DNA of 64,000 nucleotides from a bacterium (GTDB taxonomy: Bacteria > Blakebacterota > Blakebacteria > Blakebacterales > JAWOFN01). The position numbers and the translations under genes were made by a program. The first letter of the stretch is position 1, and each line of letters starts with the position of its first letter. Location: contig JAWOFN010000112.1 in NCBI GenBank assembly GCA_046497505.1, positions 8,834-72,833 on the forward strand. Direction: 5' to 3'. Below are positions 27,037 through 60,627 of the stretch, piece after piece. The notes beneath the pieces were generated by a model, which worked only from the letters and a program-made list of their open reading frames with translations, did not search any database and was not told the origin of the DNA.

Positions 27037-27178
27037 TCCCGGGATTCCCTTGAATCGTCTGCGGTTTCCCCGGCTCTTTACCTTTATGAGGGGCGGGAGG
27101 AGAAGCCCACCCGCCGGATGAACCGACCCGCGCGCCTCCACGACCGTGGGGCGCCGACCGATCATGAGAGGACCGAGT

Positions 27179-27832
27179 ATGCCGTTTCTGGACGAGAAGG
27201 TACAGGGTGAGGTGAGGGAGCAGCTCGCCGAACTCGAGGAGGAGGTCTCCCTCCTGCTGTTCACCCGCGAAGAGGACTGCCAGTTCTGCGACGAGACCGC
27301 GCAGCTGCTTCGGGAGGTCGCCGATCTGAGCGCGAAGGTGAACCTGGAGGTCCGCGACCTGGAAGAGTCCATGGAGGTCGCCGAGCATTACCAGGTCGAC
27401 AAGGTGCCGGCGCTGGTGGTGCAGGGTGAGCAGGACCACGGCATCCGATTCTACGGTATCCCCTCCGGATACGAGTTCGGCTCCCTGCTCGAGATCATCC
27501 GCCTGGTGAGCAAGGACGACCCGGAACTGGGCGAGGAGCAGCGCGGGAAGCTCGCTTCCCTCGAGCACCCGGTCCACCTCCAGGTGTTCGTGACCCCGAC
27601 CTGCCCCTACTGTCCCCGGGCGGTCGTGGCGGCGCAGAAGATGGCCATGGCCAGCGAGTGGGTCCGGGCCGACATGGTGGAGGCCAGCGAGTTCCCCGAA
27701 CTGACCCAGCACTATCAGGTACAGGGCGTTCCCAGGACGATCATGAACGAGGAGCACCACATCGAGGGGGCCGTCCCCGAGGAACACCTCCTGGAATGGG
27801 TACTCTCCGAGGCGGGGTCCTCCGGAGAGTAG
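27179..27832 (+). CDS. protein disulfide oxidoreductase, glutaredoxin-like with two thioredoxin-fold units (Pyrococcus PDO-like)
   Basis: Two CxxC sites (CQFC and CPYC) separated by about 110 aa. GAGAGGA RBS. Start ATG at 27179 (MPFLDEKVQ). Confidence 0.7.
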   Translation: MPFLDEKVQGEVREQLAELEEEVSLLLFTREEDCQFCDETAQLLREVADLSAKVNLEVRDLEESMEVAEHYQVDKVPALVVQGEQDHGIRFYGIPSGYEFGSLLEIIRLVSKDDPELGEEQRGKLASLEHPVHLQVFVTPTCPYCPRAVVAAQKMAMASEWVRADMVEASEFPELTQHYQVQGVPRTIMNEEHHIEGAVPEEHLLEWVLSEAGSSGE

Positions 27833-27910
27833 CACCCGGGAGGGATCGCTCCGGGAGCGGGATGCCGGCTGGCTGTTGCAGACCCCGGCCCGGCATGCGA
27901 TGCTGGGGAC

Positions 27911-28534
27911 ATGGATCCCCCGACATCCTCCCCGAGGGAAGACCGACAGGAGAAGGAACTCCTCCAGGCCGCAGCCGAAGGGGACCCGGAGGCGTTCACC
28001 TCCCTGATGGACCTGTACGAGGACCGTCTCTTCGGCTTCGGTATGCGGATGTGCGGGCATCGGGAGGACGCGGAGGACATATTCCAGGAGACCTTCCTCA
28101 CCGCCTTCCGCAAGCTCGATCAGTATCGGGGTGAGGGGTCGCTCAAGAGCTGGCTCTTCAAGATCGCCTCCTCCCACTGCCTCAAGAAGAGGCGGAAGCG
28201 GTCAGGTGAACCGGACCAGCACCTCTCGGTAGAGGAACTAACACCCGAGCGTCTCCGCCCCATCAGTCAGGGGCCCTCCCTGACCGGCGACCCCGAGGTA
28301 CCCCTGGAGGTGGTGCTGAAGGATGAACTCTCCCGGCACATCACCGGGGCCATCGAAGCCCTCCCCCCCGACTACCGGGTGGTGCTGATGCTGCGCGACG
28401 TGGAGGGCTTCAGTACCGGGGAGACCGCGGAGATGCTCGAACTCTCCGAGTCGGCGGTCAAATCGCGTCTGCACCGGGGGCGGATGGCGGTGCGGGAGTA
28501 CCTGCAGCCCTATCTCGAGGAGGGTGCCCGATGA
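27911..28534 (+). CDS. RNA polymerase ECF sigma factor (SigR/RpoE-like)
   Basis: Sigma70 region 2 (DIFQETFLTAFRKLDQYRG) and region 4 (VLMLRDVEGFSTGETAEMLELSESAVKSRL). Confidence 0.85.
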   Translation: MDPPTSSPREDRQEKELLQAAAEGDPEAFTSLMDLYEDRLFGFGMRMCGHREDAEDIFQETFLTAFRKLDQYRGEGSLKSWLFKIASSHCLKKRRKRSGEPDQHLSVEELTPERLRPISQGPSLTGDPEVPLEVVLKDELSRHITGAIEALPPDYRVVLMLRDVEGFSTGETAEMLELSESAVKSRLHRGRMAVREYLQPYLEEGAR

Positions 28535-28788
28535 GCGGTGAAGAGATCACCTGCCGCGAACTGGTGAATCGTCTCTCGCTCTACATCGACGGCGAGCTGA
28601 GACCCCGCATGCTCCGCGAGGTGGAACGGCACCTGGAGCGATGCGGCGAATGCAGCCACTGTGCCGACGAGATCAGGGCCACCATCCGCCTCATCCACGA
28701 GCGGGCGTACGAACCCCTCCCCTCTTCCGAACGTGAGCGGATGCGGACCCGGCTCTGGAGGAGCCTGGCGCTCGGCACCGGGGAGTGA
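28531..28788 (+). CDS. ZAS-type anti-sigma factor (RsrA-like zinc finger)
   Basis: Cys8, His34, Cys38 and Cys41 have the same spacing as the RsrA ZAS motif (C-x25-H-x3-C-x2-C). The ATGA overlap with the sigma gene is typical of sigma/anti-sigma pairs. Confidence 0.7.
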   Translation: MSGEEITCRELVNRLSLYIDGELRPRMLREVERHLERCGECSHCADEIRATIRLIHERAYEPLPSSERERMRTRLWRSLALGTGE

Positions 28789-28874
28789 GACCCGGCTTGC
28801 CGTCGGAAAACACCTTTCTCCCCTGCCCGCGATCCGGAACCTTGTCCTGTAGAACCCTACCGGGAGGTAATCCT

Positions 28875-29441
28875 ATGTACCGATTTCTGTTCCGCACCGC
28901 ACTTCTGGTCAGCTTCCTCGCCGTCGCCGCATGCGGCGGGCAGCAGGGCGAGGAGACCGTGTTGAACCTGCCCACCGGTCCCGACCGGGCCGTGGCCGTC
29001 CTCCACGCTCCGGACGGGTCCCCCCGGGGCACGGTGACCTTCACCGACACCGAGGAGGGGGTGAGGGTCGTCGCCGACGTCCGCGGGCTGGAACCGGGCG
29101 CCCACGGGTTCCATCTCCACGAGTACGGCGACTGTACCGCCTCTGACTTCACCTCCGCCGGAGGTCACTTCAATCCCACCGGAGCCCCGCACGGCGGCCC
29201 GGACGACCCGCAGCACCACGCCGGGGATTTCGGGAACATCATGGTGGGCGAGGAGGGCACCGGTCACGCGAAGCTGGTCTCCCAGATGATCAGCCTCGAC
29301 CCTGGACCCGCTTCCATCCTGGGCAGGGCCGTCATCATCCACGAGGGTGAGGACGACCTGGAGAGTCAGCCCACCGGTTCCGCCGGCGGACGCGCCGCCT
29401 GCGGGGTGGTGGGAAGAGCTCCCGCCCCGGAAGAGATGTAG
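28875..29441 (+). CDS. sodC: Cu/Zn superoxide dismutase, periplasmic
   Basis: Signal/lipoprotein N-terminus (LVSFLAVAACGG). HGFHLHEYGDC, GGHFNP, HAGDFGN and the C-terminal GGRAACGVVG Cu/Zn SOD blocks. GGGAGG RBS. Confidence 0.85.
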   Translation: MYRFLFRTALLVSFLAVAACGGQQGEETVLNLPTGPDRAVAVLHAPDGSPRGTVTFTDTEEGVRVVADVRGLEPGAHGFHLHEYGDCTASDFTSAGGHFNPTGAPHGGPDDPQHHAGDFGNIMVGEEGTGHAKLVSQMISLDPGPASILGRAVIIHEGEDDLESQPTGSAGGRAACGVVGRAPAPEEM

Positions 29442-29771: not shown

Positions 29772-30845
29772 TCAGGGCCGGTAGCCTGACTTCGCCAGGT
29801 CGAGCCACCTGCGGAGCCGCTCCCAGCCCGGCTCCAGGACCACGGCACGCCCCCGGATATCGGTCTCGCTGAGCCAGCTCACCATCATCCCGTGGTATTC
29901 CCCCCGCGCCCGAAAGGCCTGGAAGACGAACCGGTGTCGGCCGGCGATCCAGTCCCATCGTGGATCCCGGACGGTGATGTGCCCCTCGCTGTAGAGGCTG
30001 TCCTCCACATTCTGCACCTCCCCGGGGACCACCTTCACACTCCGATCCTTTCCTGCCAGCACCACCGGGAGACTCTCCAGCGCCGCCTGGAAGAACTCCC
30101 GCAGGGTACCGGTCCGATCGTCCTGCCTTCGGAGGAGCACCATCCCCACCGATTCGGTGTCCATCGACCAGAGGGCCCCATCCTCGCGGGTGACCTCCTC
30201 TCCCCATCTCCCCCACTGCCAGCTCTCGGGGATCCTCAAGCCCACGGAGAGTCGCGGTGCCCTGACGGCCCGGATATGGGCCGGGACCATCGGCGGTGCC
30301 GGCCGTATGGGCCCGTGACAGGCCGCTGATGCCGCCATCACCTCCAGATGGTCCATCCACCGCGGATCGGTCTCCAGGGAGCGGTCCAGGAGGGTCTCCG
30401 CCGCGAACGTCCTGCTGCTCCGGCCGCAGTACCAGAGCCGCACGGCCCGGATCGTCCCCCCCTCCTCCCGCTCCAGGGCCCAGAGCGTGTGACCCCGGTG
30501 GGTCTCATCCGAAGGGACCGCTTCCGACGGTCCCCATCCCCTGCCCGTCAGCCGGGAAGCCCGATCGGCGGCATCGGCTGCAGTGGCTGGAGCTCCCTCA
30601 CCCACCCGTGCAGACCAGTGGAGGAGCAGCCAGCTGCGCTGTCTGAACTGGTAGAGGATCAGGCGGGCCGTCTCCGGACCGCCGACGTCCGAGACCCGGG
30701 TCCAGCTCCCCAGGGGCTTCTGGAGGAAGCTCATGTCCACCTCGGCCCTCCCTCCGGGCTGCGCCCCGGCGGGAGCAGGAGCCCCCGGGAGTCCGCTGAG
30801 GAGCAGGAGGGCACAGAACCAGGGCAGGGAGAGCGGAGGGAGCAT
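29772..30845 (-). CDS. hypothetical secreted protein (358 aa)
   Basis: ORF 29772..31217 trimmed to ATG 30845, which gives a classic signal peptide (MLPPLSLPWFCALLLLSGLPGAPAPAGAQ). No family recognised. Confidence 0.5.
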   Translation of the reverse strand: MLPPLSLPWFCALLLLSGLPGAPAPAGAQPGGRAEVDMSFLQKPLGSWTRVSDVGGPETARLILYQFRQRSWLLLHWSARVGEGAPATAADAADRASRLTGRGWGPSEAVPSDETHRGHTLWALEREEGGTIRAVRLWYCGRSSRTFAAETLLDRSLETDPRWMDHLEVMAASAACHGPIRPAPPMVPAHIRAVRAPRLSVGLRIPESWQWGRWGEEVTREDGALWSMDTESVGMVLLRRQDDRTGTLREFFQAALESLPVVLAGKDRSVKVVPGEVQNVEDSLYSEGHITVRDPRWDWIAGRHRFVFQAFRARGEYHGMMVSWLSETDIRGRAVVLEPGWERLRRWLDLAKSGYRP

Positions 30846-31023
30846 GACCGGACCTCCGGGAGGGTGGAAGGGGACCGAACCGCCGGATGTGCGGCGTTGA
30901 CACCCCGTGACGGGGCAGGGTACGGTGCGGATGGGGGTCGGACAGCCCCTCTGACCCCGTGAACCGGACTCCGGCCGCACTGACGTCTTATTACAGCAAC
31001 CCTGCGACAGGGGATCTCCTGGT

Positions 31024-31905
31024 ATGATCGAGCGGGACCGTTCGCGGACTCCGGGTCCCTCCCGACTCCTCACCAGCGCTCTCGCGGGAGCAGCCGCGGG
31101 TACGGCGGTGGGGCTGGGTGCATGGTGGGCCCTGGACCAGCTCATCCTGGCCGCCTCGGGTACCGGGGCCCCGGCAGGACTGGCCCTCGCCCTGGCCTCT
31201 CTGGGGGGCAGCATCACCGCCCTGCTCCTGGCCTACCGGCTCCTCATGCGGCGCGCTTCGGAGAGTGACCTGCTCCGGCTGGTGGTGGAGTCCACCGCCG
31301 CGGGGGTCTGGATCGTGGATCGGGAATTCGACTCGGTCTGGCTCAACGACAGCATGCGCCGGCTCCTGGGCGAGGAGCCGACCAGCGGCAGCACCGTCTT
31401 CGACTACTTCGGTGAAGAGGACCGCCGAAAACTGGAAGAGGCCCGGCAAGAGCGCCGGCGGGGAATATCCAGTGCCTATCAGGCCACGGTCCGCCGCCCG
31501 GACGGTACGGAACGGGTCGTCTACATCATCGGGACCCCCATATACGGCCCCGACGGCCGACACCTCGGTTCCTTCGGGTTCTTCATGGACATCACCGACC
31601 AGCAGAAGGCCGCCGAGGAAGCCGCCGAGGAGGCCCGTGTCGAGACCCTCATGGCCACCGTGGCCCGTCTCAACCACAAGATCAACAACGCCCTGATGGT
31701 GATACGCGGGCAGGCGGAGGTCAGCATACGGAAGGTGGAAGAGGAGGGTCCCGTGCACGCGTTCCAGCGGGTGATCGACCAGGTGGACCTGATCACCGGC
31801 GAGCTCAAGTCCCTCAGCGAACTCAGGGAGGTCCAGCTGGAGGACTATCTGGGCTCCCGTCCCATCCTGAGCGTTCCGGAACCGGGGACCACCCCGGAGG
31901 AGTGA
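31024..31905 (+). CDS. membrane-anchored PAS domain protein with a HisKA-like H-box but no ATPase domain
   Basis: Two N-terminal TM segments. A PAS-like core (VWIVDREFDSVWLNDSMRRLLG...GTPIYGPDGRHLGSFGFFMDITD). Then ARLNHKINNAL (H-box-like). The protein ends about 60 aa later without N/G boxes. Confidence 0.6.
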   Translation: MIERDRSRTPGPSRLLTSALAGAAAGTAVGLGAWWALDQLILAASGTGAPAGLALALASLGGSITALLLAYRLLMRRASESDLLRLVVESTAAGVWIVDREFDSVWLNDSMRRLLGEEPTSGSTVFDYFGEEDRRKLEEARQERRRGISSAYQATVRRPDGTERVVYIIGTPIYGPDGRHLGSFGFFMDITDQQKAAEEAAEEARVETLMATVARLNHKINNALMVIRGQAEVSIRKVEEEGPVHAFQRVIDQVDLITGELKSLSELREVQLEDYLGSRPILSVPEPGTTPEE

Positions 31906-31956: not shown

Positions 31957-32982
31957 ATGCCTATACCGGTCCGTCCCCGTACGTCCTCATACTGCAGGGT
32001 CATCCTGCTCCTCCTGCCACTGGCCCTCACCGCTGCTCTTCCCGGGTGCACCCGGACGCCGCAGCAGCTGGAGGCCCGGGGAGACGAACTCCTCTCCGAG
32101 GGCCGCTTCGGACAGGCGATGGCCGCCTACAAGAAAGCCGTCGAACTATCCCCGGAGGACCTCGGACTGAAGCTGAAAGTGGCCGGGGCCTACCGTGACC
32201 GGGGCCTCCGGTCGGAGGCCATCGAACGATACGAGACCATCCTGGAAGAGCACCCAGAGAGCCTGGAAGCCCGGCGCGAGCTGGCTCTGCTCCTGGCGGC
32301 AGAGGGTCTCCGCACCCGGGCGATGGAACAGATCGGGATCCTGAAGGATCGGATGCCCGGGTCCCCCGTCCCCTGGAAGCTCGAAGCCCGGATGGCCCAG
32401 CAGGACGAGGACTGGCGGGATGCCGTCACCCACTGGCGACAGGCCCTCCGCCGGGACGACCAGGACGCGGAGGCCTATCACATGATGGGCCGGGCCCACA
32501 TGGAGCTGGGGGACTACCCTTCTGCCCTGGCCGCACTGCAGCAGGCCGTCCGGGTCGAGGAGGGATACGACGACGCCTATTTCGAACTGGGTCTGACCCT
32601 CATCGAGCTGAACCGGATCGACCGGGCCGAAGAGGCCTACCGCAACTACATCGACACCCATCCCCGCGACGCACAGGCCTACTACAAGCTGGGCAACGCA
32701 CTGCTCAGCAAGGGATATGCCGAGCAGGCCGTCGAGCAGTACCGGAGGGCCGTGGCCATCCGTCCCGGATACGCCGACGCACACTTCAACCTCGGCATGG
32801 CGCTGCTCCAGCAGGACCGGGAAGAAGAGGCCGCCAAGGCCTTCGAAGCGGTGCTCATCCACGCTGCCCGCGACGCGGTGAAAGACAACGCGCGGAGCAT
32901 GCTGAGGGTCATCCGGCAGGGCGGCCGAGAGGTCCCCGAAGACGGGGTGAATCGGCTTGACCCCCTCTTGAGCCGAACGTAG
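31957..32982 (+). CDS. TPR repeat lipoprotein
   Basis: Lipobox-like LALTAALPGCTR. At least 7 TPR-like repeats (AYKKAVELSP, AYHMMGRAHMELGDY, AYYKLGNALLSKGY, AHFNLGMALLQ). Confidence 0.7.
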   Translation: MPIPVRPRTSSYCRVILLLLPLALTAALPGCTRTPQQLEARGDELLSEGRFGQAMAAYKKAVELSPEDLGLKLKVAGAYRDRGLRSEAIERYETILEEHPESLEARRELALLLAAEGLRTRAMEQIGILKDRMPGSPVPWKLEARMAQQDEDWRDAVTHWRQALRRDDQDAEAYHMMGRAHMELGDYPSALAALQQAVRVEEGYDDAYFELGLTLIELNRIDRAEEAYRNYIDTHPRDAQAYYKLGNALLSKGYAEQAVEQYRRAVAIRPGYADAHFNLGMALLQQDREEEAAKAFEAVLIHAARDAVKDNARSMLRVIRQGGREVPEDGVNRLDPLLSRT

Positions 32983-33038
32983 GTTGCCCGCAGTCTAGGA
33001 GTCCCCGCCCGGGGGATTCCCGACGCGCCGTACCGACG

Positions 33039-33054
33039 CCCCCCTGCAGGGGGG
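33039..33054. terminator. perfect 16-bp GC palindrome CCCCCCTGCAGGGGGG between the TPR gene and the Lon-like gene
   Basis: Read directly. Potential stem-loop or attenuator 57 nt after the TPR stop and 45 nt before the Lon-like start. Confidence 0.3.
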
Positions 33055-33098
33055 TCGGCGGCTTCCTCCTCGCCATCGAAGGCTGCAAGGAGCGACGC

Positions 33099-35528
33099 AT
33101 GCCCGAAGTGCCGGTCGCCCTCTCCTCCGACCGACTCTACGCACGCTGCGACCCCTCCGACCTGCCTGCGGAGTCCACCGCGAACATCCCCCCCGATGTG
33201 GGGATCATCGGTCAGCCCCGGGCCGCCGACGCCATCGAGTTCGCACTGGGGGTCGATGCTGAGGGCTACAACCTCTACGTGGCCGGTCAGACCGGCACCG
33301 GACGGAACACCAGCGTCCGGATCGCGGTCAAGGACGCCGCAGTCGACCGACCCGTACCCGACGACTGGTGCTACGTACACAACTTCGAACAGGAGGACCG
33401 ACCTCGCGCCATCCGTCTGCCTGCCGGACAGGCCTGCCAGCTGCAGGAGGACATGGAGGCCCTGATCGAAGAGCTGAAGGCCGAGATCCCGAAGGCCTTC
33501 GAGGGACGCGCCTACGAAGAACGAAGGGCACGGCTCCTCAAGGACCTCCAGGAACGGAGGGACAGCCTCCTGGAGGAGTTCAAGGAGGAGGCGGAGGAAC
33601 GGGGCTTCACCGTCGAGCAGTCCGGAGGGGGGCTCCTCACCCTCCCGATGAAGGACGGCAGGCCCATGTCCAGCCAGGACTGGGAGGAACTCAGCGAGGA
33701 GGAGAAGACGGACCTGGAGGAGCGGCAGGAGGACCTCCAGCAGGTGATGCGCGAGATCACCCGCCGGGTACGGGAGATGGAGAAGGAGGCCCGCAGCCGC
33801 CTCTCCGACCTGGAACGTGAGATCGCCATGCTGCCCGTCTCGGCGGCCGTCGACGAGCTCAAGGAGAAATACGCGGACCAGGAAGTGGTCCTGGAGTACC
33901 TGGAGGCCGTCAAGGAGGAGATCCTCGAGAACCTGGACGATTTCAAGGAGGACAACGACCAGCAGGTGGCCATCCCCGGCCTGCGCATGAGCCGGGGCGG
34001 CGACAGGTTCGTCCGTTACCAGGTGAACGTCCTGGTAGACAACAGCGGCACCGAGGGCGCTCCGGTCGTCTTCGAGACCAACCCCACCTACTACAACCTC
34101 ATCGGCCGCCAGGAGTACCGTGCTCAGATGGGGGCCATGACCACCGACTTCACCATGATCAAGGCAGGTGCCCTGCACCGGGCGAACGGCGGCTATCTGG
34201 TGGTCCAGGCACTGGATGTGCTCCGCAACCCGATGTCGTGGGAGGCCCTCAAGCGGGCCGTCAAGAACAGGGAGATCGTCCTCGAGGACCTGAACGAGCA
34301 GTACCGCCTTATCCAGACCCAGGGGCTCAAGCCCCAGCCCGTCCCGCTGGATACCAAGGTCATCCTGGTGGGATCCCCCTATCTCTACCATCTCCTCTAC
34401 GCCTACGACGAGGATTTCAGGAAGATCTTCAAGGTGAAGGCCGACTTCGGACTCCTGATGGACCGGGAGGGGGATGCGATCGCCACGTACGCCGGCTTCA
34501 TCAGCAGCAGGGTCCACGAGGAGGGGCTGAAGCACTTCGACCGGTCGGCCATGGCCCGCGTGATCGAACACGGCCACCGCATGGTGTCGGATCAGACAAG
34601 GCTCTCCACCCGCTTCATCGACGTGGCGGATCTGCTGAGGGAAGCGGACTACTGGTCGCGGAAGGCGGGTGCGAGCAGGGTATCGGCCAAGCACGTGGAC
34701 CGGGCCATCGACGAGAAGGTCCACCGCTCCAACAGGATCGAGGAGCGCCTCCGCGACCTCATCGCGGAAGGCACCATCCTGGTGGACACCGAGGACGCGG
34801 TGGAAGGGCAGATCAACGGGCTGGCCGTTCTCGACCTCGGGGATTATCAGTTCGGGAAACCGAGCCGGCTCACCGCCCGTGTCTACATGGGCCGGTCGGG
34901 GATCATCCAGATCGACCGGGATTCGAAACTCGCGGGCAATATCCACAACAAGGGTGTGATGATCCTCCAGGGTTTCTTCGGGGAACGCTATGCCAGGAAC
35001 GCCCCCATCGCGCTCTCAGCGAGCCTGACATTCGAACAGTTGTACGACGGCGTGGAAGGCGACTCCGCCTCTTCCACCGAGCTGTACGTCCTGCTCTCCG
35101 CCCTGGCACGCGTCCCCCTCCGCCAGGACCTGGGGGTGACGGGGTCGGTGAACCAGCGGGGAGAGATCCAGGCCATCGGCGGAGTGAACGAGAAGGTGGA
35201 GGGTTGGTATCACACCTGCAAGATCGTGGGACTGAGCGGGAAGCAGGGTGTGCTGATCCCGGAATCCAACGTGCATAACCTCATGCTCAAACAAGAGATC
35301 CGGGACGCCGTGGATGAGGGGACGTTCCACATCTATCCCATCAAGCACGTCGACCAGGGGATCGAACTCTTGACGGGCATCCCGGCGGGCGAACTGGATG
35401 AAGAGGGGTCCTACCCCGTCGGAACCATCAACTACCGAGTGCAGAAGAAGCTGGAAAACCTGGCCGAAGGACTCCGGAAGTCCTCGCCCGGGTCGGACGA
35501 CAGCTTCGGCCTGCGCTCCAGCACCTGA
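33099..35528 (+). CDS. Lon-like protease with degenerate AAA+ module and coiled-coil insertion (LonC-type, probably ATP-independent)
   Basis: C-terminal Lon S16 protease domain (GDSASSTELYVLLSAL... with catalytic Ser, GVNEKVEGWYHTCK). The N-terminal AAA-like region has the degenerate Walker A GQTGTGRNTS, with no Lys. A long charged helical insertion (EERRARLLKDLQERRDSLLEE...EKEARSRLSDLEREIA) is present. AAGGAG RBS. Confidence 0.7.
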   Translation: MPEVPVALSSDRLYARCDPSDLPAESTANIPPDVGIIGQPRAADAIEFALGVDAEGYNLYVAGQTGTGRNTSVRIAVKDAAVDRPVPDDWCYVHNFEQEDRPRAIRLPAGQACQLQEDMEALIEELKAEIPKAFEGRAYEERRARLLKDLQERRDSLLEEFKEEAEERGFTVEQSGGGLLTLPMKDGRPMSSQDWEELSEEEKTDLEERQEDLQQVMREITRRVREMEKEARSRLSDLEREIAMLPVSAAVDELKEKYADQEVVLEYLEAVKEEILENLDDFKEDNDQQVAIPGLRMSRGGDRFVRYQVNVLVDNSGTEGAPVVFETNPTYYNLIGRQEYRAQMGAMTTDFTMIKAGALHRANGGYLVVQALDVLRNPMSWEALKRAVKNREIVLEDLNEQYRLIQTQGLKPQPVPLDTKVILVGSPYLYHLLYAYDEDFRKIFKVKADFGLLMDREGDAIATYAGFISSRVHEEGLKHFDRSAMARVIEHGHRMVSDQTRLSTRFIDVADLLREADYWSRKAGASRVSAKHVDRAIDEKVHRSNRIEERLRDLIAEGTILVDTEDAVEGQINGLAVLDLGDYQFGKPSRLTARVYMGRSGIIQIDRDSKLAGNIHNKGVMILQGFFGERYARNAPIALSASLTFEQLYDGVEGDSASSTELYVLLSALARVPLRQDLGVTGSVNQRGEIQAIGGVNEKVEGWYHTCKIVGLSGKQGVLIPESNVHNLMLKQEIRDAVDEGTFHIYPIKHVDQGIELLTGIPAGELDEEGSYPVGTINYRVQKKLENLAEGLRKSSPGSDDSFGLRSST

Positions 35529-35552: not shown

Positions 35553-36608
35553 ATGGACTACTTCCGCGAGATCGCGAAGCGGAACCACCGGCAGGTGCTC
35601 TTCGGGAACGACCCGGAGTCCGGCCTCCAGACGATCATCGCCATCCACGACCTGACCCTGGGGCCCGCCCTCGGCGGGTGCCGGATGAAGACCTACCTCA
35701 GCACCTATGAGGCACTGGTCGACGCACTCCGGCTCTCCCGGGGGATGACCTACAAAGCCGCAGCCGCGGGTCTCGACCTGGGCGGCGGGAAATCCGTGAT
35801 CATCGGTGACCCCGAGACGCAGAAGTCGGAGGACCTCCTGAGGGCCTTCGGCAGGATGGTGGACGGACTCAACGGGCAGTACATCACCGCGGAGGACGTG
35901 GGCACCACGGTACCCGACATGACCATCGTCCGGGAGGAGACCGAGTACGTGACAGGACTCCCCGAGGACATGGGCGGGTCGGGCGATCCCAGCCCGGTCA
36001 CAGCCCTGGGGGTCTTCCACGGGCTCCGTGCCGCCACCGAGGAGGTCTATGGCAGCGACGACCTCGACGGCAAGAGCGTGGCGGTCCAGGGTCTGGGCAA
36101 GGTCGGCTGGCACCTGGCGGAGCACTTGGTCGAGGCCGGTGCCGAACTGATCGTGGCCGACATCCGTGAGGACGTCGTGGAGAAGGCCCGGGAGGAACTC
36201 GGTGCCGAGGTCATGGCCCCCGACCGCATCCACGCCGCGGAGTGCGATATCTTCAGCCCCTGTGCCCTGGGCGCGGTGATCAACAACCAGAGCATCGAGG
36301 AGCTGAAGTGCCGGATCGTGGCTGGTGCCGCCAACAACCAGCTGGCGGACGAGAAGGTCCAGGGGCCGATGCTGAAGCTCCGGGACATCCTCTACGCGCC
36401 GGACTTCGTCATCAACGCCGGCGGGCTGATCAACGTCTCGGGGGAACTCGACCCCGACGGCTACGACCGCGAGAAGCAGCTTGCCGCGACCAAGCGCATC
36501 TATGATTCGATGAAGGAGTGCTTCGCGCTGGCCAAGGAGCGGAACGTCCCCACCGCCGAGGCCGCCATGATCATGGCGGAGGAGCGTATCGAAGCGGCGA
36601 AGAGGTAG
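35553..36608 (+). CDS. leucine (Leu/Phe/Val) dehydrogenase, short Glu/Leu/Phe/Val dehydrogenase family
   Basis: GGCRM...K catalytic region (LGGGKSVI), Rossmann GLGKVGWHLAEHL, and a 351-aa length typical of LeuDH/PheDH. Confidence 0.8.
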   Translation: MDYFREIAKRNHRQVLFGNDPESGLQTIIAIHDLTLGPALGGCRMKTYLSTYEALVDALRLSRGMTYKAAAAGLDLGGGKSVIIGDPETQKSEDLLRAFGRMVDGLNGQYITAEDVGTTVPDMTIVREETEYVTGLPEDMGGSGDPSPVTALGVFHGLRAATEEVYGSDDLDGKSVAVQGLGKVGWHLAEHLVEAGAELIVADIREDVVEKAREELGAEVMAPDRIHAAECDIFSPCALGAVINNQSIEELKCRIVAGAANNQLADEKVQGPMLKLRDILYAPDFVINAGGLINVSGELDPDGYDREKQLAATKRIYDSMKECFALAKERNVPTAEAAMIMAEERIEAAKR

Positions 36609-37542: not shown

Positions 37543-39840
37543 ATGAATATTTCCGTTCTCAACCTGTTGCTCGTGCTGGCCGCAGCCTGGGGCGGCGGCC
37601 TCGCCGTCCGGAGGCTCGGGCTCCCGTCCATCGTCGGAGAACTCCTGGCCGGGATCATCTTCGGCCCCCCCATCCTGGGTCTGATCCAGCCCTCTCCCGC
37701 ATTGATGGTGCTGGCTGAGGTCGGCGTCATCCTCCTCCTCCTCTACGTCGGGATGGAGATCGATCCGAAGGAGCTGAAGAAGGCCTCCTGGGGAGGTCTC
37801 CTGGTTGCGATCGGCAGCTTCCTGCTCCCGTTCGCACTGGGGTTCCTCGTCATCCGCTTCTTCGGCGGCACACTCCTGGCCGCGACCCTCTCCGGCATCC
37901 TCCTGGGCGTGACCTCGCTCACCACCAACAGCCGCATCCTTCTGGACCTCCAGCTCCTGGATACCAGGATCGCCCACACCCTCCTGGCCGGTGCGCTGGT
38001 GGCCGAGATCCTCGGGCTGGTCGCCTTCGCATCGCTGCTCGGGGTCATCGAGGTCGGTTCCGCCGACTTCGGCCTGCTCCTGGAAGAGATCGGCCTCGCT
38101 CTGATCTTCCTCAGCTTCACCGCCATCGTGGGGCACTACCTGCTGCCGCCCGCGGCCGCCTGGCTGGTCCGGACCGTCCGGGTCAGTTCCGGCATGCTGT
38201 TCCTGCTCATCCTCGCCGTCGGGTTCCTCTTCGCGGAACTCGCGGAGCTCGCCGGACTGCACGCGATCCTCGGCGCGTTCATGATCGGTCTGTTCCTGCG
38301 GGATGTGATCCCCGACCGGAGTATGAACCGGGAGGTGATCGGACTGGTCGAGGACATCTCCCTCGGCTTCATGGCCCCGATCTTCTTCGTGGTCGCCGGA
38401 TTCCAGGTGACGCTCGGTGCCTTCGCGATGCATCTCCCCCTGCTCGCCGTGGTGGTCGTTGTGGCCATCGCCAGCAAGGTCGTGGGCTCGGCGGTGGCGT
38501 ATCTCCCCACCGGACACGGACTGATGGAAGGCCTGGCCGTGGGGGCCGGGATGTCGAGCCACGGTGCGGTGGAGATCATCATCGCGGGGATCGGCCTCGA
38601 GTCCGAGATCATCGGCCCCGACCTCTTCTCCGTCCTGGTCATCATGACCATCGTCTCCACCATCACCGCCCCCATGATGCTGAAACATCTGACCAACCGG
38701 ATGAAGAACAGCGGCACTCTGGTACGATCGGACCGGCGGAGGGGCGTGCTCATCGTCGGCGCGGGCCCGACCGCATGCCTGGTGGCCGGTGAACTCTCCC
38801 GGTGGACGGAGGTCACACTGCTCGACAGCAGTCCCTCCCACTGTGAGACCGCACGCCGACTGGGGCTCGAGGTGGAGCACGGCAACGCGCTGAAGGAGGA
38901 TGTCCTCGAACAGGCAGGTGCGGAGGATATCCGGACCCTGGTCGCCCTGACCTCCAACGCCGAAGTGAACGTCCTGGCAGCCCGGCTCGCCAGGGAGGTC
39001 TTCCTCGTCCCCGAGGTCCATGTGACCTTCATGCACGGCGAGAAGGGGGCCCATGCAGGTCTGATCGAACCGATCGAGGCCACCACCCTCTTCGCCGGAC
39101 CCGCCGATATCAGCGGATGGGACCGGAAGATCGCCCTCGGACACTGCAGGATCTCCACCAGGGAGGTGACCGAACCGGCAGATGCCGCGGAGTTCCTCGA
39201 TTCCCTCGGTTCCACGGACCGGACCCTGCCCATCATCATCCTGCGGGGGGACGGCCTGGCGGGGATGTTCCATGCAGGGTGCACGCTCCAGGAGGGCGAC
39301 CGGGTCGTCATGCTGGAGCAGGAGCAGTCCCCGGTTCAGGACGAGTTCGATGAACTCGTGCGGGAAGCCGACCTGCTGGATATCGAAGAACCCGTCGGGA
39401 TGGAAGAACTCTTCCGACGGGTGGCCGGGGTGCTCGAAGCCCGCACGGGGATCGATGCTTCGGAGATCTCCGGGCTGCTCATCGAGCGGGAGCGTATGGG
39501 CAGCACGGTGGTCGGACCCGATCTCGCGGTCCCCCACATCCTGCTGGACGACATGGAGGGAGTCCGGCTCGTCGTGGTCCGGTGCAGGCGGGGCGTCCGG
39601 TTCCCGGACATGGACGTGAACGTCCACACGGTCTTCGTCCTGGCCAGCGGGTCGGTGGACCGTACCCTCCACCTGAGGATCCTCTCCGCGGTGGCTCAGA
39701 CCATCCAGGACCCCGGGTTCGAGGACCGATGGCTCTCCGCCCCGGGAGAGGCGCAGCTCCGCGATATCATCCGGTACGCGGAGCGGAGGCGCATCCCTTT
39801 CGCGGGCCAGAGCCAAGGGGCCCATAATCGCTTGCCCTGA
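37543..39840 (+). CDS. cation:proton antiporter (CPA family) fused to RCK (TrkA-N/TrkA-C) and a C-terminal PTS EIIA(Ntr/Fru)-type domain
   Basis: About 400-aa TM domain (GELLAGIIFGP, NhaP/Kef-like). GAGPTACLVAGEL Rossmann of TrkA-N. The C-terminal 150 aa carry the PTS_EIIA_2 fold with the phosphorylatable His in GPDLAVPHILL. Confidence 0.75.
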   Translation: MNISVLNLLLVLAAAWGGGLAVRRLGLPSIVGELLAGIIFGPPILGLIQPSPALMVLAEVGVILLLLYVGMEIDPKELKKASWGGLLVAIGSFLLPFALGFLVIRFFGGTLLAATLSGILLGVTSLTTNSRILLDLQLLDTRIAHTLLAGALVAEILGLVAFASLLGVIEVGSADFGLLLEEIGLALIFLSFTAIVGHYLLPPAAAWLVRTVRVSSGMLFLLILAVGFLFAELAELAGLHAILGAFMIGLFLRDVIPDRSMNREVIGLVEDISLGFMAPIFFVVAGFQVTLGAFAMHLPLLAVVVVVAIASKVVGSAVAYLPTGHGLMEGLAVGAGMSSHGAVEIIIAGIGLESEIIGPDLFSVLVIMTIVSTITAPMMLKHLTNRMKNSGTLVRSDRRRGVLIVGAGPTACLVAGELSRWTEVTLLDSSPSHCETARRLGLEVEHGNALKEDVLEQAGAEDIRTLVALTSNAEVNVLAARLAREVFLVPEVHVTFMHGEKGAHAGLIEPIEATTLFAGPADISGWDRKIALGHCRISTREVTEPADAAEFLDSLGSTDRTLPIIILRGDGLAGMFHAGCTLQEGDRVVMLEQEQSPVQDEFDELVREADLLDIEEPVGMEELFRRVAGVLEARTGIDASEISGLLIERERMGSTVVGPDLAVPHILLDDMEGVRLVVVRCRRGVRFPDMDVNVHTVFVLASGSVDRTLHLRILSAVAQTIQDPGFEDRWLSAPGEAQLRDIIRYAERRRIPFAGQSQGAHNRLP

Positions 39841-39932: not shown

Positions 39933-42200
39933 ATGGAGCTGCATCTTCTGAACCTGCTGTTCGTGCTCCTGGCTGCCTGGGCTGCGGGGACCGTCGCGGA
40001 GAGGCTGGGGTATCCCACGATCCTGGGTGAGCTGCTGGCCGGGATCCTCCTCGGCCCTCCCCTCCTGGGGCTCCTCCACGGACAGGAGGCGCTGAACGTG
40101 CTGGCGGAGGTCGGGGTCCTCCTGATGATGATGTACATCGGGATGGAGATCGACCCGAAGGAGCTCGGCAAGGCGTCCTGGGCGGGGTTCCTGGCAGCGA
40201 TCGGGGGCTTCATCACCCCGTTCGTCGCCGGATACTTCGTGGTCGTGGCCTTCGGCGGCTCCACCATGGCAGGCATCTTCGTCGGGATCGCGGGGGGTGT
40301 GACCTCCCTGGCGACCAAATCCCGCATCCTGGTGGACCTGAAGCTCCTGGACACCCGCATCGCCCATGTCCTCATGGCCGGTGCCCTGGTCTCCGACACC
40401 CTCTCCCTGCTGGTTTTCGCGGGGGTGGTCGGGATCGCAGGGGCCGGTTCGGTCAGCGCGCTGGGACCGGCGGCCGTGGCCGGGAAAGCGGCCGCATTCT
40501 TCCTCGCCGGAGGTCTGGCCGGCTACTATCTGCTCCCCTACCTCGGCAGGCTGCTGGACGACGCCGGCATCAGGAACCGAACCGTGCTGTTCACCCTGAT
40601 GCTGCTGATCGCCCTCCTGTATGCGGAACTCGCGGAACTCGCCGGTCTCCACGCGATCCTGGGGACCTTCATCGCGGGCCTGTTCCTGCGTGACGCCATA
40701 CCCGACCGGAAGCTCTCGAAGAGGCTCACATCCACCGTATACGACGTCTCGATCGGGTTCCTGGCCCCCATCTTCTTCGTGATCACCGGGTTCGAGGTCT
40801 CCTTCTCGGTGTTCGGTGCCGACCTCGCCCTGCTGATATCGGTGGTGGCCGTCGCGACGCTCGGGAAGGTCCTGGGAACGGCCCTCTTCTATATGCCGAC
40901 CGGACACGGCTGGCGGGAAGGGGTGACGATCGGTGCAGGGATGAACGGACGCGGGGCTGTTGAGATCATCATCGCGGGGATCGGCCTCCAGCAGGGCATG
41001 ATCTCCCAGGAGATCTTCTCCATCCTCATCTTCATGGCCATCTTCACCACCGCCACCCTACCCGTCCTCCTCAAATGGGGCACCGATTGGCTGGACCGAC
41101 GCGGAGAACTCGTCCGCGCATCGGAGGATCGGACCGGTCACGTCATCGTGGGCGGCGGGGCGGCCACACGGCTCGTGGCCGGTTTCCTCTCGGACGAGGG
41201 ACCCCTGACCATCATCGACAGCAACCAGTACCGCTGCGAGATGGCCAAGCGTGAAGGATACGAGACACTGTGCGGCAATGCCCTGCGTGAGGAGGTGCTG
41301 AGCGAGGCGGGGGCTGCCGAAGCGCGCACGTTCGTCTCCATGACCAGCAACGCCGAGGTGAACGTGCTCGCCGCACAGCTGGCGAGAGAGGTCTTCCTGG
41401 TCCCCTCCATCCATGTCGCCATGGCGGCGGCGGACCGGGGTGCCCACGAGGAGATGATCGAACCCCTGGAAGCGAACACACTCTTCGCGGCTCCCGCCAA
41501 CATCGGGAGGTGGGACCGGGTCGTGGATCAGCGGTCCTATCGCATCCGCAGGATGCAGGTACCGGAGGACGCGGCGGAGGGGGCGGAGGAACTCCGCTCC
41601 TCGTACTGGACATCCGAGGACTGCCGCCTGCCCCTCCTGGTCGAATCGGACCAGGGCAGGAGACTGTTCCACGATGCCGTCGAGATATCTCCCGGGGATA
41701 CGGTGATCCTGCTGGAGTCCCTCGAAGAGGGACATCAGGGGGATGACTTCGACAGGCTGGTCGAAGAGAGCCGGATACTGGACATCCCCGAGAGCATCGA
41801 CATGGAGACCTTCTTCGAGATCGCCTCGGAAATGATCGCCGACGAGGTCGATGTGGGCAAGGAGGTCCTCAAGCACCAGCTCCTCCTCCGGGAGGAGGAG
41901 GGCAGCACCGTCCTGGGCTCTGACCTCGCCGTACCCCATGTCCTCCTCCCAGCCGGGAAGGGGTTCCACATGGTCGTCGCCCGCTGCCGCATGGGAGTGC
42001 ACTTCCCGGACATGGATGTCCGGGTCCACGCGGTGTTCGTGCTGGCCGGCGGTCACGATGAGCGGACGACCCATCTTCGCGCGCTCTCCGCCATCTCGCA
42101 GATCGTACAGAACGACCGGTTCATGGACCGGTGGATCGACGCGGCGGATCCGGAGGATATCCGGTCTCTCGTACTCAACGCCGACCGGAGGCGCTTCTGA
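39933..42200 (+). CDS. cation:proton antiporter-RCK-PTS EIIA fusion, tandem paralog of the preceding gene
   Basis: Same architecture. The N-terminus MELHLLNLLFVLLAAWAAGTVAERLGYPTILGELLAGILLGPPLLG aligns with the upstream copy. The EIIA-type His lies in GSDLAVPHVLL. GAAGGAAG RBS. Confidence 0.75.
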   Translation: MELHLLNLLFVLLAAWAAGTVAERLGYPTILGELLAGILLGPPLLGLLHGQEALNVLAEVGVLLMMMYIGMEIDPKELGKASWAGFLAAIGGFITPFVAGYFVVVAFGGSTMAGIFVGIAGGVTSLATKSRILVDLKLLDTRIAHVLMAGALVSDTLSLLVFAGVVGIAGAGSVSALGPAAVAGKAAAFFLAGGLAGYYLLPYLGRLLDDAGIRNRTVLFTLMLLIALLYAELAELAGLHAILGTFIAGLFLRDAIPDRKLSKRLTSTVYDVSIGFLAPIFFVITGFEVSFSVFGADLALLISVVAVATLGKVLGTALFYMPTGHGWREGVTIGAGMNGRGAVEIIIAGIGLQQGMISQEIFSILIFMAIFTTATLPVLLKWGTDWLDRRGELVRASEDRTGHVIVGGGAATRLVAGFLSDEGPLTIIDSNQYRCEMAKREGYETLCGNALREEVLSEAGAAEARTFVSMTSNAEVNVLAAQLAREVFLVPSIHVAMAAADRGAHEEMIEPLEANTLFAAPANIGRWDRVVDQRSYRIRRMQVPEDAAEGAEELRSSYWTSEDCRLPLLVESDQGRRLFHDAVEISPGDTVILLESLEEGHQGDDFDRLVEESRILDIPESIDMETFFEIASEMIADEVDVGKEVLKHQLLLREEEGSTVLGSDLAVPHVLLPAGKGFHMVVARCRMGVHFPDMDVRVHAVFVLAGGHDERTTHLRALSAISQIVQNDRFMDRWIDAADPEDIRSLVLNADRRRF

Positions 42201-43493: not shown

Positions 43494-44651
43494 GTGTCCA
43501 CGCTGCTCGTCACATTGGCCCTCTTCCTGGCCTGGCTCCTCCGGGAACGGCTGCTCCTGGACCGCGCACGAGACCGGGTCCCGAACCGGATCACGGTGAC
43601 CGGGACCCGGGGGAAGAGCGGGTGCGCCCGCCTGCTGGGTGCCATGCTCCGGGCGGAGGGCCGACGGGTGGTGGTGAAGACCACCGGTTCGGAGGCCACC
43701 CTGGTACTGCCCGACGGAACGACCGAGACGATCCCACGAAGGGGGGTACCCAGCATCATGGAGCAGCGCGACCTCATCCGGCGCTGTGCCCGGCTCGGAG
43801 CGGACACCCTGGTGGCGGAGATCATGAGCATCCACCCGGAGAACCACCGCATGGAAGGACTCCGGATCCTCCGGCCCCAGACGGTCCTCTTCACCAACGC
43901 GAGGCCGGACCACGTGGATGCCATGGGGTGGGACGAGAGGGCGGTCTGTGAGGTACTCCTCTCCTCGGTGCCCCCCGGGACCCATCTCCTCCTCCCCCCC
44001 TCCCCCCCGCCCCTCCTGGAGGAACATATCCGCGGAGGGCGGTGGGAAGCGATGAAGGTGGCCGAGGGGGAGGCGACGATGCCTCCTGCGGCGGGCGTCT
44101 TCCATGACGATCTCTGTCTGGCAGCGGCAGCGGCACGGAGAGCAGGGGTCGGGGACCGGGCGGTGAGGGAGGGTTTGGAAGACTTCCGGGAGGATGCCGG
44201 GGGGCTGAGGGTCTGGCGGCTGGAACCCCCGGGGATCCGGGGACCGGTCTACGCCGTGAGCGCCTTCGCGGCCAACGACCCCCTCTCCACCGTCGACGTC
44301 CTCGACCACGTCCGGGGCCGGCTGCCCTCGCCCCTGCCCTGCACCGGCCTGCTGAGCCTGCGGGCCGACCGCGCCGACCGCACACTCCACTGGATCAGGT
44401 ATCTGAAGGAGCAGGGGTTGTCCGGGGTACACCCCCTTTTCGCCCTCGGCGTACAGGCGGGCATCGCATCTCGGAGGACACCCGGCATCCGTGCCCTGAA
44501 ATGGACCGGCCCCGGCAGCGTGACCCGGGAGGTCTGCGCGGCGGCGGGGACGGACGGCCCGCAGATCCTCTTCGGGTTCGGCAACTTCAAGGGGCACGGG
44601 GAGGAACTGGCGGCATGGTGGGCCGGGGAGGGCAGCCGCGTTGAGCTATGA
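43494..44651 (+). CDS. pgsB: poly-gamma-glutamate synthetase PgsB/CapB (Mur-ligase-like amide ligase)
   Basis: VTGTRGKSG P-loop. Blocks VVKTTGSEATLVL, NARPDHVDAMGWDE, SAFAANDPLST and SLRADRADRT align block-for-block with Bacillus PgsB. GTG start. Confidence 0.8.
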   Translation: MSTLLVTLALFLAWLLRERLLLDRARDRVPNRITVTGTRGKSGCARLLGAMLRAEGRRVVVKTTGSEATLVLPDGTTETIPRRGVPSIMEQRDLIRRCARLGADTLVAEIMSIHPENHRMEGLRILRPQTVLFTNARPDHVDAMGWDERAVCEVLLSSVPPGTHLLLPPSPPPLLEEHIRGGRWEAMKVAEGEATMPPAAGVFHDDLCLAAAAARRAGVGDRAVREGLEDFREDAGGLRVWRLEPPGIRGPVYAVSAFAANDPLSTVDVLDHVRGRLPSPLPCTGLLSLRADRADRTLHWIRYLKEQGLSGVHPLFALGVQAGIASRRTPGIRALKWTGPGSVTREVCAAAGTDGPQILFGFGNFKGHGEELAAWWAGEGSRVEL

Positions 44652-45078
44652 ACTGGCGTTCGCCGGCCTCCTCCTCTCCCTGGCCTTCACCGGTCTCACG
44701 GGCTACTACCCCGGCGGCATCATCGTGCCCAGCTACCTGGTCCTCTTCGCCAACCAGCCGGAACGGATCGCGGGCACCCTGGCGGCCGCCCTCCTCACTT
44801 TCCTCTGCTATCGACTGGCCGAACGCCACCTGCTCCTCTTCGGCCGCCGGAGGACGGTCTTCATGCTCCTGACGGGGGCGACCTGGGCGGTGCTCTGGGT
44901 CCAGGTGCTCCCATCTCTCTTCCCGGTCTCCATGGAGTTCCGGGTCATCGGATGGATCATCCCCGGCCTCATCGCCAACCACTTCCAGCGGCAGGGGGCG
45001 GCGGTGACCACGGCCGGCCTCGTCACCGTGGTCACCCTCCTCCACGCGGGGGGACGTCTCCTGGGAACGGGAGGCTGA
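44641..45078 (+). CDS. pgsC: poly-gamma-glutamate synthesis membrane protein PgsC/CapC
   Basis: 145 aa with four TM helices. IVPSYLVLFANQP, LFGRRRTVFMLLTG and GWIIPGLIANHFQRQG match the PgsC conserved blocks. TTG start overlapping the pgsB stop. Confidence 0.75.
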   Translation: MSYELAFAGLLLSLAFTGLTGYYPGGIIVPSYLVLFANQPERIAGTLAAALLTFLCYRLAERHLLLFGRRRTVFMLLTGATWAVLWVQVLPSLFPVSMEFRVIGWIIPGLIANHFQRQGAAVTTAGLVTVVTLLHAGGRLLGTGG

Positions 45079-59628: not shown

Positions 59629-60627
59629 CTACAGCATGGCCAGGACGGACGCCCCGAGCATGCAGATCAGCGCGATAGGGGTCAGGTACTTCCACGACAC
59701 CACCATGAGCTGGTCCACCCGCAGCCGCGGCACGGACCAGCGCAGCACGATGATGGCCACGCCCACCAGCACCATCTTGATCACGGTCCAGGCGATGCCG
59801 GGGATGAAGTCGAGGAAGGCGAAGGGTGCCATCCAGCCGCCCAGGTAGACGACGGTGATGATCAGGCCCGCCACGAAGATGTTGCCGTACTCCGCCAGGA
59901 AGAACATGGCGAAGCGCATCCCGCTGTACTCGGTGTGGAAACCCGCCACCAGTTCCGATTCCGACTCCGGCATGTCGAAGGGAAGGCGATTCCCCTCGGC
60001 CACGGCGGTCAGGACGAAGACCCCCATGCCGATGAAGTTGAAGGGGAAGCCCTTGAAGAGGGTCCACTGGAGGACCCCGCCCGCCTGCGACTCGACGATC
60101 CCCACCGTGGAGAGGGTGCCGGCGTAGATGAGCGCGGCCAGGGCAGCGATGCTCGCCGGGATCTCGTAGGAGACGATCTGCGCGGCGCCGCGCATGGAGC
60201 CGAAGAGGGCCCACTTGTTGCCGCTGGACCATCCCGCCATGAGGATGCCCAGTACCCCCAGGCTGGAGATGGCCAGGAAGTAGAAGATGCCGATGTTCAG
60301 GTCCGCGGGGATCAATCCCGCGCTCCAGGGGATCACGACCATGGCCCCGATGGCTCCGCCCACCACCAGCGCCGGGGCGATCAGATGCATGACCGGGTCC
60401 GCCCTGGCCGGGACCACATCCTCCTTCTGGAGGAGCTTGAGGGCGTCGGCGATGGGCTGGAGGATGCCGTGGTAGCGGCCCACCTCCATGGGGCCCAGCC
60501 GGTCCTGCATGAACCCTGCGGTCTTCCGCTCGGCCAAGGTCAGGATCAGGGCGGCCACCGCGAAGAAGATCAGGATGATGACCGACCAGATCACCATGTC
60601 AGCGAAGGGCCAGGGCGTGAAGGTCAT
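59629..60627 (-). CDS. nuoH: NADH-quinone oxidoreductase subunit H
   Basis: 332 aa, 8 TM helices. ADALKLLQKED and GWSSGNKWALFGSMRGAAQIVSYEI NuoH blocks. Its ATG overlaps the nuoD stop. Confidence 0.85.
   Translation of the reverse strand: MTFTPWPFADMVIWSVIILIFFAVAALILTLAERKTAGFMQDRLGPMEVGRYHGILQPIADALKLLQKEDVVPARADPVMHLIAPALVVGGAIGAMVVIPWSAGLIPADLNIGIFYFLAISSLGVLGILMAGWSSGNKWALFGSMRGAAQIVSYEIPASIAALAALIYAGTLSTVGIVESQAGGVLQWTLFKGFPFNFIGMGVFVLTAVAEGNRLPFDMPESESELVAGFHTEYSGMRFAMFFLAEYGNIFVAGLIITVVYLGGWMAPFAFLDFIPGIAWTVIKMVLVGVAIIVLRWSVPRLRVDQLMVVSWKYLTPIALICMLGASVLAML

Follow-up and report, generated by a model that had tools for sequence, protein, structure and literature searches.

A LonC-type Lon-like protease with a degenerate P-loop encoded in a Gemmatimonadota-like genome

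The stretch of DNA considered here, 64,000 nucleotides of contig JAWOFN010000112.1 (referred to below as the window), carries an open reading frame (ORF) of 809 codons that an earlier reading of the sequence alone (the original prediction) had assigned to LonC, the ATP-independent Lon-like proteases described in Meiothermus. For this gene, hereafter lonC, we determined directly how its domains are arranged, which residues are catalytic, the state of its motifs, its similarity in fold, the distribution of its family and the genes around it; the features of the locus are collected in Table 1. The ORF is confirmed as a true gene, since its third-position GC content of 0.87 is typical for the real genes of the window (66.6% GC), it is preceded by a ribosome-binding site, and it has full-length homologues of 806-809 aa with identities of up to 89%.

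Table 1. Features of the lonC locus, in window coordinates
Feature	Position	Strand	Details
Membrane PAS protein gene	31024..31905	+	293 aa; Pfam PAS; two hydrophobic N-terminal segments
TPR lipoprotein gene	31957..32982	+	341 aa; Pfam TPR families; signal peptide, Cys31
Promoter-like element	32957..32985	+	-35 TTGACC 32957-32962; 17-nt spacer; -10 TAGGTT 32980-32985
Two GC-rich hairpins, TPR-lonC spacer	32998-33020 and 33027-33062	+	second contains 16-bp palindrome
Shine-Dalgarno AAGGAG	33087..33092	+	6 nt 5' of lonC ATG; read from the sequence; C(A/C)AGGA kept in relatives
lonC-type gene	33099..35528	+	ATG start; 809 aa + stop codon
Degenerate P-loop GQTGTGRNTS	33285..33314	+	residues 63-72; Arg69 at Walker A Lys position
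Helical-hairpin extension	33420..33998	+	residues ~108-300 (~190 residues)
Second half of AAA-like alpha/beta domain	34014..34448	+	residues 306-450; Pfam AAA_32, E 4e-57
Walker-B-like GGYLVVQALD	34188-34217	+	residues 364-373; aligns with MtaLonC GGYLILDAL
AAA+ lid (alpha) domain	34533..34727	+	residues 479-543; Pfam LonB_AAA-LID, E 2e-26
Lon S16 protease domain	34779..35393	+	residues ~561-765; aligned to MtaLonC and A. fulgidus LonB protease domains
Catalytic Ser656 codon	35064-35066	+	preceded by Asp655; aligns with MtaLonC D581-S582
Catalytic Lys699 codon	35193-35195	+	aligns with MtaLonC K625

Domain architecture and assignment to LonC

A close relationship with LonC is evident from both sequence and predicted fold. 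The protein matches four Pfam domains, LonC_helical (residues 89-122), AAA_32 (319-450), LonB_AAA-LID and Lon_C (653-756), so that AAA_32 and Lon_C, the two hidden Markov models proposed as a check on the assignment, are both found. When all PDB sequences were searched with phmmer, the top match was LonC of Meiothermus taiwanensis (MtaLonC), with an E-value of 2e-100 over residues 27-179 and 306-761; LonB of Thermococcus onnurineus (TonLonB) came well behind, at 4e-24. An AlphaFold2 (AF2) model built with 54 family sequences (mean predicted local distance difference test score, pLDDT, 83; predicted template-modeling score, pTM, 0.71) gave the same order when it was compared with known structures by Foldseek: full-length MtaLonC (8k8v_A) matched over 806 columns with template-modeling (TM) scores of 0.78 (query) and 0.87 (target), TonLonB with scores of 0.55 and 0.76. 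The assignment is thereby borne out, MtaLonC being the best match by sequence and by fold alike.

LonC was defined by Liao et al. in 2012 by two insertions in the protease domain, Walker motifs that depart from the canonical form and an insertion in the AAA-like domain that is specific to the family; insertion 1 has the consensus CX3GLX(G/E) and follows the helix of the catalytic Lys, and insertion 2 reads phi-X2-A-phi and lies in helix alpha5 (PMC3391209). All four features of this type (MEROPS S16.007) are present in the window protein. Its insertion 1, C707-KIV-GLSG714, aligns to CKALGLSG of MtaLonC, and among 151 sequences, made up of the window protein and 150 representatives, the C, G, L and G of the motif are found in 146, 137, 139 and 140, respectively; insertion 2, I734-RD-AV738, aligns to V-L-E-A-V of MtaLonC, with A737 kept in 141/151.

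The Lon S16 protease domain is intact, as had been predicted. The residues that align with the catalytic S582 and K625 of MtaLonC (numbering from PMC3391209 and PMC13069640), Ser656 and Lys699, are invariant in a set of 266 full-length relatives, which was assembled from the 120 nearest representatives of clusters at 90% identity and 150 representatives at 50% identity and filtered to 700-900 aa. An Asp, rather than a Pro, before the catalytic Ser is the signature of B- and C-type Lon proteases (PMC9569914). Confidence of the AF2 model is low at residues 606-615 and 640-655, directly before the invariant GDS motif; we infer that these segments may perhaps correspond to the switchable substrate-binding loop described for MtaLonC.

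Between the P-loop and the remainder of the AAA-like domain lies a segment that had been described as a charged, helical, coiled-coil insertion. It is indeed highly charged, with 29% acidic and 15% basic residues (44% charged) over residues 108-285; in the AF2 model, however, it is not a plain coiled coil but the LonC-specific helical-hairpin extension (HHE) with its hook, made up of helices h1 (111-134) and h2 (137-167), a beta-hairpin hook (170-185), a long helix h3 (200-257) and helix h4 (262-277), and ending in a disordered linker (286-300). The modeled layout is the same as that of MtaLonC, for which cryo-electron microscopy revealed a four-helix HHE with a beta-hairpin hook (PMC13069640). 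With a maximum 19-residue Kyte-Doolittle mean of 0.99, no hydrophobic segment fit for a membrane anchor of the LonB type was found.

Comparison with other Lon-like proteases leads to the same family. MtaLonC (PDB 4fwd, 8k8v and others) has the same domain order, i.e. P-loop, HHE with hook, rest of the AAA-like domain, lid and S16 protease, together with the Asp-Ser...Lys active site and both protease-domain insertions; neither protein has a Walker B Glu, a membrane anchor or the N-domain of LonA. Its PDB entries bear the molecule name 'TTC1975 peptidase'. The Lon-like protease TTC1975 itself, from the thermophile Thermus thermophilus, belongs to the same LonC subfamily and is likened to the window protein here by description rather than by direct sequence comparison. 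TonLonB (PDB 3k1j) shares a B-type AAA module with lid, a protease domain of the B type in which Asp precedes the Ser, and the lack of a LonA N-domain; in LonB, however, Walker motifs A and B are intact and a transmembrane insertion occupies the site of the HHE, neither of which applies to the window protein. LonA was rejected, as only ~35 residues precede the AAA-like domain, Asp655 rather than Pro precedes the Ser, and the LonA models score far below their cut-offs (NF008053, 20.7 vs 891; TIGR00763, 19.8 vs 608). The sporulation 'LonC' of Bacillus (TIGR02903), a different family of the same name, was likewise rejected, since it scores 33.6 bits where its cut-off is 678.8 and matches only the core of the protease domain, residues 652-727. 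By all features of sequence and predicted fold that could be tested, the identification of the 809-aa protein as a LonC-type Lon-like protease is supported.

ATPase motifs and their variation across the family

The sequence GQTGTGRNTS, which the original prediction had singled out as a P-loop without the Walker A Lys, is confirmed as such. It aligns with the Walker-A-like GPPSLGKHE of MtaLonC, and in the AF2 model it sits between a strand (59-63) and a helix (69-82), which is the position of a P-loop. At the Walker B site, at the end of the modeled strand 366-370, Gln370 and Ala371 replace the Asp and Glu. The Walker-like motifs of MtaLonC, GPPSLGKHE and GYLILDA, were defined against TonLonB (PMC3391209). 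Since a wrongly registered alignment might hide a Walker A Lys or a Walker B Glu, both were looked for with the registers set by the MtaLonC alignment and the secondary structure of the model; the P-loop contains no Lys and the Walker B site no acidic residue.

Variation at these positions among the 266 relatives is strikingly uneven. G63, G66 and G68 are near-invariant and position 71 is T or S in 226/266, whereas position 69, that of the Walker A Lys, is R in 155, K in 106 and another residue in 3, with at least ~51 changes between R and K on a tree built by the unweighted pair group method with arithmetic mean (UPGMA). At position 370 (the Walker B Asp) Q is found in 96, N in 53, D in 50, E in 26 and other residues in 41; position 371 (the Walker B Glu) is A in 189, V in 42 and another aliphatic or small residue in 35, and is never acidic; position 373 is Asp in 202/266. 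Two further residues, K445 and R494, are invariant. The hallmark of the family is therefore the loss of the Walker B Glu, which is universal in the members sampled. A lysine-less Walker A had been taken as a hallmark shared with MtaLonC, and this was wrong, since MtaLonC retains the Lys; nor does Arg69 single out the window gene, because Arg predominates in the family. The Walker A Lys is known to be essentially immutable in true P-loop NTPases. The free exchange of K and R while the glycines stay fixed argues that the loop has been retained for charge-based binding of an anion (phosphate), not for catalysis and not as a dead relic, a view suggested by the alignment that agrees with the phosphate found in the P-loop of MtaLonC.

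Identity between the window protein and MtaLonC is only ~29%, and the two differ in several respects. MtaLonC has Lys59 in its P-loop where the window protein has Arg69, and Asp313 at the Walker B site where the window protein has Gln370, so that the Asp is also lost in the latter; 301 rather than 254 residues separate P-loop and Walker B motif, and these 47 extra residues make for a longer HHE region; the total length is 809 rather than 732 aa; and the host is Gemmatimonadota-like and probably non-thermophilic, as against the Deinococcus-Thermus host of MtaLonC. Because these differences are typical of a large subgroup of ~800-aa proteins, the window LonC is an ordinary member of the family, a standard copy within its subgroup with nothing special to the gene.

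The family as a whole is large. A HMMER search of 1.84 billion cluster representatives returned 8701 at a threshold of E<=1e-3, and 2500 when the threshold was E<=1e-30. The closest relatives of the window protein, at 64-89% identity, come from metagenome-assembled genomes (MAGs) of Gemmatimonadota; more distant full-length relatives, at 42-54% identity, come from Omnitrophota, Chloroflexota, Acidobacteriota, Nitrospirota and Thermodesulfobacteriota, as well as from Planctomycetota, Bacillota, Proteobacteria, Bacteroidota and one Bathyarchaeia MAG. Members of LonC thus come from no fewer than ten bacterial phyla and from a single archaeal MAG; eight were listed in MEROPS as of 2022 (PMC9569914). 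The earlier statement that few LonC enzymes have been characterized holds, in that literature searches found no functional work outside Thermus and Meiothermus, but the family is not rare.

Upstream region and neighbouring genes

At the 3' end of the TPR gene the promoter-like element of Table 1, whose -10 hexamer overlaps the TAG stop codon of that gene, resembles a sigma-70-type promoter for lonC, as judged from sequence. The motifs CTTGACCC and TA(C/G)GTT(G/C)CCC are invariant and lie 17-18 nt apart in the window and in the related loci L002, L011 and L009, amid flanking sequence that cannot be aligned. A scan for consensus promoters missed the element because its -10 hexamer matches at just 3/6 positions. 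If this reading is right, the two GC-rich hairpins are in the 5' leader of lonC; they could also serve to stop read-through from the TPR gene. The 116-nt spacer (32983-33098) has a predicted RNA folding energy of -62.4 kcal/mol (z -2.74), and the leaders of L002, L011 and L009 lack the ~70-nt segment that contains the hairpins. A terminator scan found no T tract or T-tract terminator in the hairpin region, and the region has no Rfam match.

The perfect 16-bp GC palindrome that had been noted ahead of the gene is real (CCCCCCTGCAGGGGGG, at 33039-33054, 45 nt 5' of the lonC start), but it is statistically unremarkable: the window contains four perfect 16-bp palindromes against ~2.3 expected from its base composition (64000 x 0.278^8), so this one carries no significance by itself. 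The other three (36563-36578, 54844-54859 and 60179-60194) all apparently lie within coding regions. As a repeated element the palindrome was rejected, a blastn search with an 86-nt segment of the leader having found no second copy in the window or in any of the loci.

The two genes upstream of lonC are present as predicted, one for a tetratricopeptide-repeat (TPR) lipoprotein and one for a kinase-like PAS protein. The TPR protein has a lipobox-like LPGC at Cys31, which is a canonical LTGC in its orthologue from L001; orthologues directly 5' of lonC occur in L001, L002, L003, L007, L011, L012 and L013, and a remnant in L009. The C-terminal helix of the PAS protein (RLNHKINNALMVIRGQAE) resembles the H-box of HisKA_2 at a sub-threshold E-value of 0.0037 and is conserved as RLNH[KR]INNALMVIRGQAE in Gemmatimonadota relatives, but the protein has no HATPase_c kinase domain. 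Orthologues of the PAS protein are encoded in L001, L003, L007 and L012, and only the C-terminal H-box part in L002 and L011. TPR and PAS genes are lineage-specific neighbours of lonC in Gemmatimonadota. When the ORFs within 4 kb of LonC were clustered over 88 loci, no family-wide gene partner emerged, only lineage-specific neighbours, and in the window the neighbours are housekeeping genes.

Further upstream in the window, on the plus strand, is a block of thioredoxin-like, extracytoplasmic function (ECF) sigma factor, zf-HC2 anti-sigma factor and Cu/Zn superoxide dismutase (SOD) genes (27146-29441), the first three of which are syntenic with L009 (1438-3042) at 61-63% identity. It is followed by a conserved minus-strand gene (29772-30746), without a Pfam family, whose product is 40% identical to a 355-aa protein of L009; a 204-aa ORF on the plus strand (30348-30962), rich in Arg, Pro and Gly, was rejected as a wrong-frame artefact, the conserved gene lying on the minus strand instead. 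On the other side, 24 nt 3' of lonC, is a gene for an ELFV-type (Leu/Val/Phe) amino-acid dehydrogenase (35553-36608, plus strand), in whose slot seven Gemmatimonadota relatives (e.g. L001, 10448-11473) have a class-IV aminotransferase, which looks like non-orthologous displacement of amino-acid-deaminating enzymes. Four distant loci (L034, L036, L046 and L055) also have an ELFV dehydrogenase gene close to LonC, but no robust cluster formed. An Asp/Glu racemase gene on the minus strand comes next in the window and in several relatives. Beyond it, on the plus strand, are tandem paralogues (37543-39840 and 39933-42200, 49% identical), each a fusion of Na+/H+ exchanger, TrkA_N and phosphotransferase system (PTS) EIIA-type domains, and a gene for a CapB-like protein with a Mur-ligase domain followed by one for CapC (43494-45078), a few kb from the racemase; the CapB/CapC-like genes suggest poly-gamma-glutamate synthesis.

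Outside Gemmatimonadota, a gene for a Rex-like redox repressor (Put_DNA-bind_N and CoA_binding) is divergent from that for LonC in L006 (5270-5896), L008 (5277-5909) and L014 (~117 nt upstream). The spacers between the two genes contain strong promoters of the form TTGAC-N17-TATAAT. Regulation of LonC by Rex was considered and rejected, as no site resembling a Rex box was found in these three spacers.

Proposed mechanism and its alternatives

MtaLonC has no ATPase activity, degrades unfolded substrates, and is a heat-shock protein and a chaperone (PMC3391209, PMC13069640), and TTC1975 likewise is reported to lack ATPase activity and to show proteolysis that is not stimulated by ATP (cited in PMC3391209). 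By homology to these two proteins, on which we rely for its oligomeric state, its independence of ATP, the class of its substrates, its activity as a chaperone and its binding of phosphate, we consider it very likely that the window protein is a soluble, cytoplasmic, ATP-independent, self-compartmentalizing ring protease and chaperone of the LonC type. Each subunit would consist of a degenerate AAA-like module fused to the Ser656-Lys699 protease domain, and the subunits would assemble into a ring whose protease domains enclose the Ser-Lys sites and which, by analogy with MtaLonC, would be a hexamer in its proteolytically active state. With Arg in place of the Walker A Lys and Gln-Ala in place of the Walker B Asp-Glu, the ATPase site should be unable to hydrolyze ATP; there would therefore be no unfolding of substrates, and only unfolded, damaged or intrinsically unstructured polypeptides would be cleaved. 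The HHEs with their hooks would project from the AAA-like ring to make a basket over the pore, which would catch non-native chains, i.e. act as a holdase or chaperone, and hand them to the chamber. Most likely the P-loop would still bind phosphate or another anion, as that of MtaLonC holds a phosphate ion (PMC13069640), in a structural or allosteric rather than a catalytic role.

Some points weigh against this account. The biochemistry of the window protein and of its ~800-aa subgroup is extrapolated from MtaLonC across ~29% identity, and the oligomeric state, with its switch between hexamer and heptamer, from a thermophile. The conservation of the P-loop (G63, G66, G68 and [ST]71) also goes far beyond that expected of a relic without function, and because Asp373 is well conserved too, the degenerate site may bind nucleotide or be used in some unconventional way. 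MtaLonC did bind ATPgammaS, at ~1 per subunit, in isothermal titration calorimetry (ITC) (PMC3391209), and formed closed hexamers with ATPgammaS (PMC13069640). A tentative proposal with an appreciable chance of being right, though one we would not favor, is accordingly that an allosteric signal in the form of nucleotide, polyphosphate or phosphate binds at the site and gates a proteolytic hexamer against a chaperone heptamer, so that the enzyme is ligand-regulated without being fueled by ATP; this is a refinement of the proposed mechanism more than a strict rival to it. The near-invariance of GxxGxG[RK]x[TS], whose charge is kept through the interchange of K and R, would fit such a site, as would the phosphate in MtaLonC, but the conservation of the loop could be purely structural, the MtaLonC structures show phosphate only and no nucleotide, and their authors call the assembly model speculative (PMC13069640).

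The remaining alternatives differ more in kind. A classical ATP-dependent LonB-like protease, with Walker motifs that only seem degenerate because they were misregistered, would account for the AAA_32 and LonB_AAA-LID domains and for a weak match to the LonB model TIGR00764; that match, however, reaches 117.7 bits against a cut-off of 516.6, neither Lys nor Asp nor Glu occurs in the registers fixed by alignment and model, a transmembrane insertion is lacking, and the Walker B Glu is found in 0/266 relatives. With Arg69, Gln370 and Ala371 in place of the GxxxxGK[ST] and hhhhDE of the archaeal membrane-bound enzymes, we regard this as highly improbable. BrxL, of the phage-defence system BREX, likewise joins an AAA-like module to a Lon-like C-terminal domain, and a role of this kind had been raised and dismissed in the original prediction. 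The dismissal was justified: PADLOC gave no BrxL match at E<=0.01, only coiled-coil noise to LmuB and ZorA at E>5e-4; no BREX genes (PglX, PglZ, BrxA-C) or other defence genes were found among the ~20 neighbouring products scanned in the window; and the neighbours are housekeeping genes in the window and likewise in the 88 related loci, which have no partner in common, all of which leaves a BrxL-type or other phage-defence protease the least probable of the readings weighed. In Gemmatimonadota, finally, LonC might act together with the TPR lipoprotein and the membrane PAS/H-box protein encoded upstream, as a module for proteolysis controlled by an envelope or redox signal or for quality control of exported proteins. 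The TPR gene lies directly 5' of lonC in all eight loci of the Gemmatimonadota type, though L009 has a mere remnant of it, six of these loci have the PAS gene, or just its H-box part, upstream, the genes are all on the same strand with gaps of 40-120 nt while the outer flanks vary, and the thioredoxin/ECF sigma/anti-sigma/SOD block is nearby in the window and L009. Export is predicted for the TPR protein, however, while LonC has no signal peptide, and L009 retains lonC without an intact PAS or TPR gene; in addition, a promoter-like element of its own precedes lonC in the subgroup of the window, the clustering over 88 loci found no such neighbours outside the phylum, and the shared gene order may just be inherited at 64-71% identity. 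We therefore think the module unlikely, if less so than either LonB or BrxL. A slightly longer shot would combine the last proposal with ligand sensing: the GxxGxG[RK]x[ST] loop of the ~800-aa subgroup would be a sensor of phosphate, polyphosphate or nucleotide that switches between protease and chaperone rings, with the PAS/H-box and TPR proteins linking this switch, in Gemmatimonadota, to an envelope or redox signal.

The ATP-independent ring protease and chaperone proposed above is a protein-quality-control enzyme, already labeled 'Lon protease family protein' in databases, and the window gene by itself matters little. LonC is known from work on Thermus and Meiothermus, yet it is a very large family that spans multiple phyla, and the flipping between K and R within a frame of fixed glycines bears on how ATP-independent Lon-like proteases are assembled and regulated.

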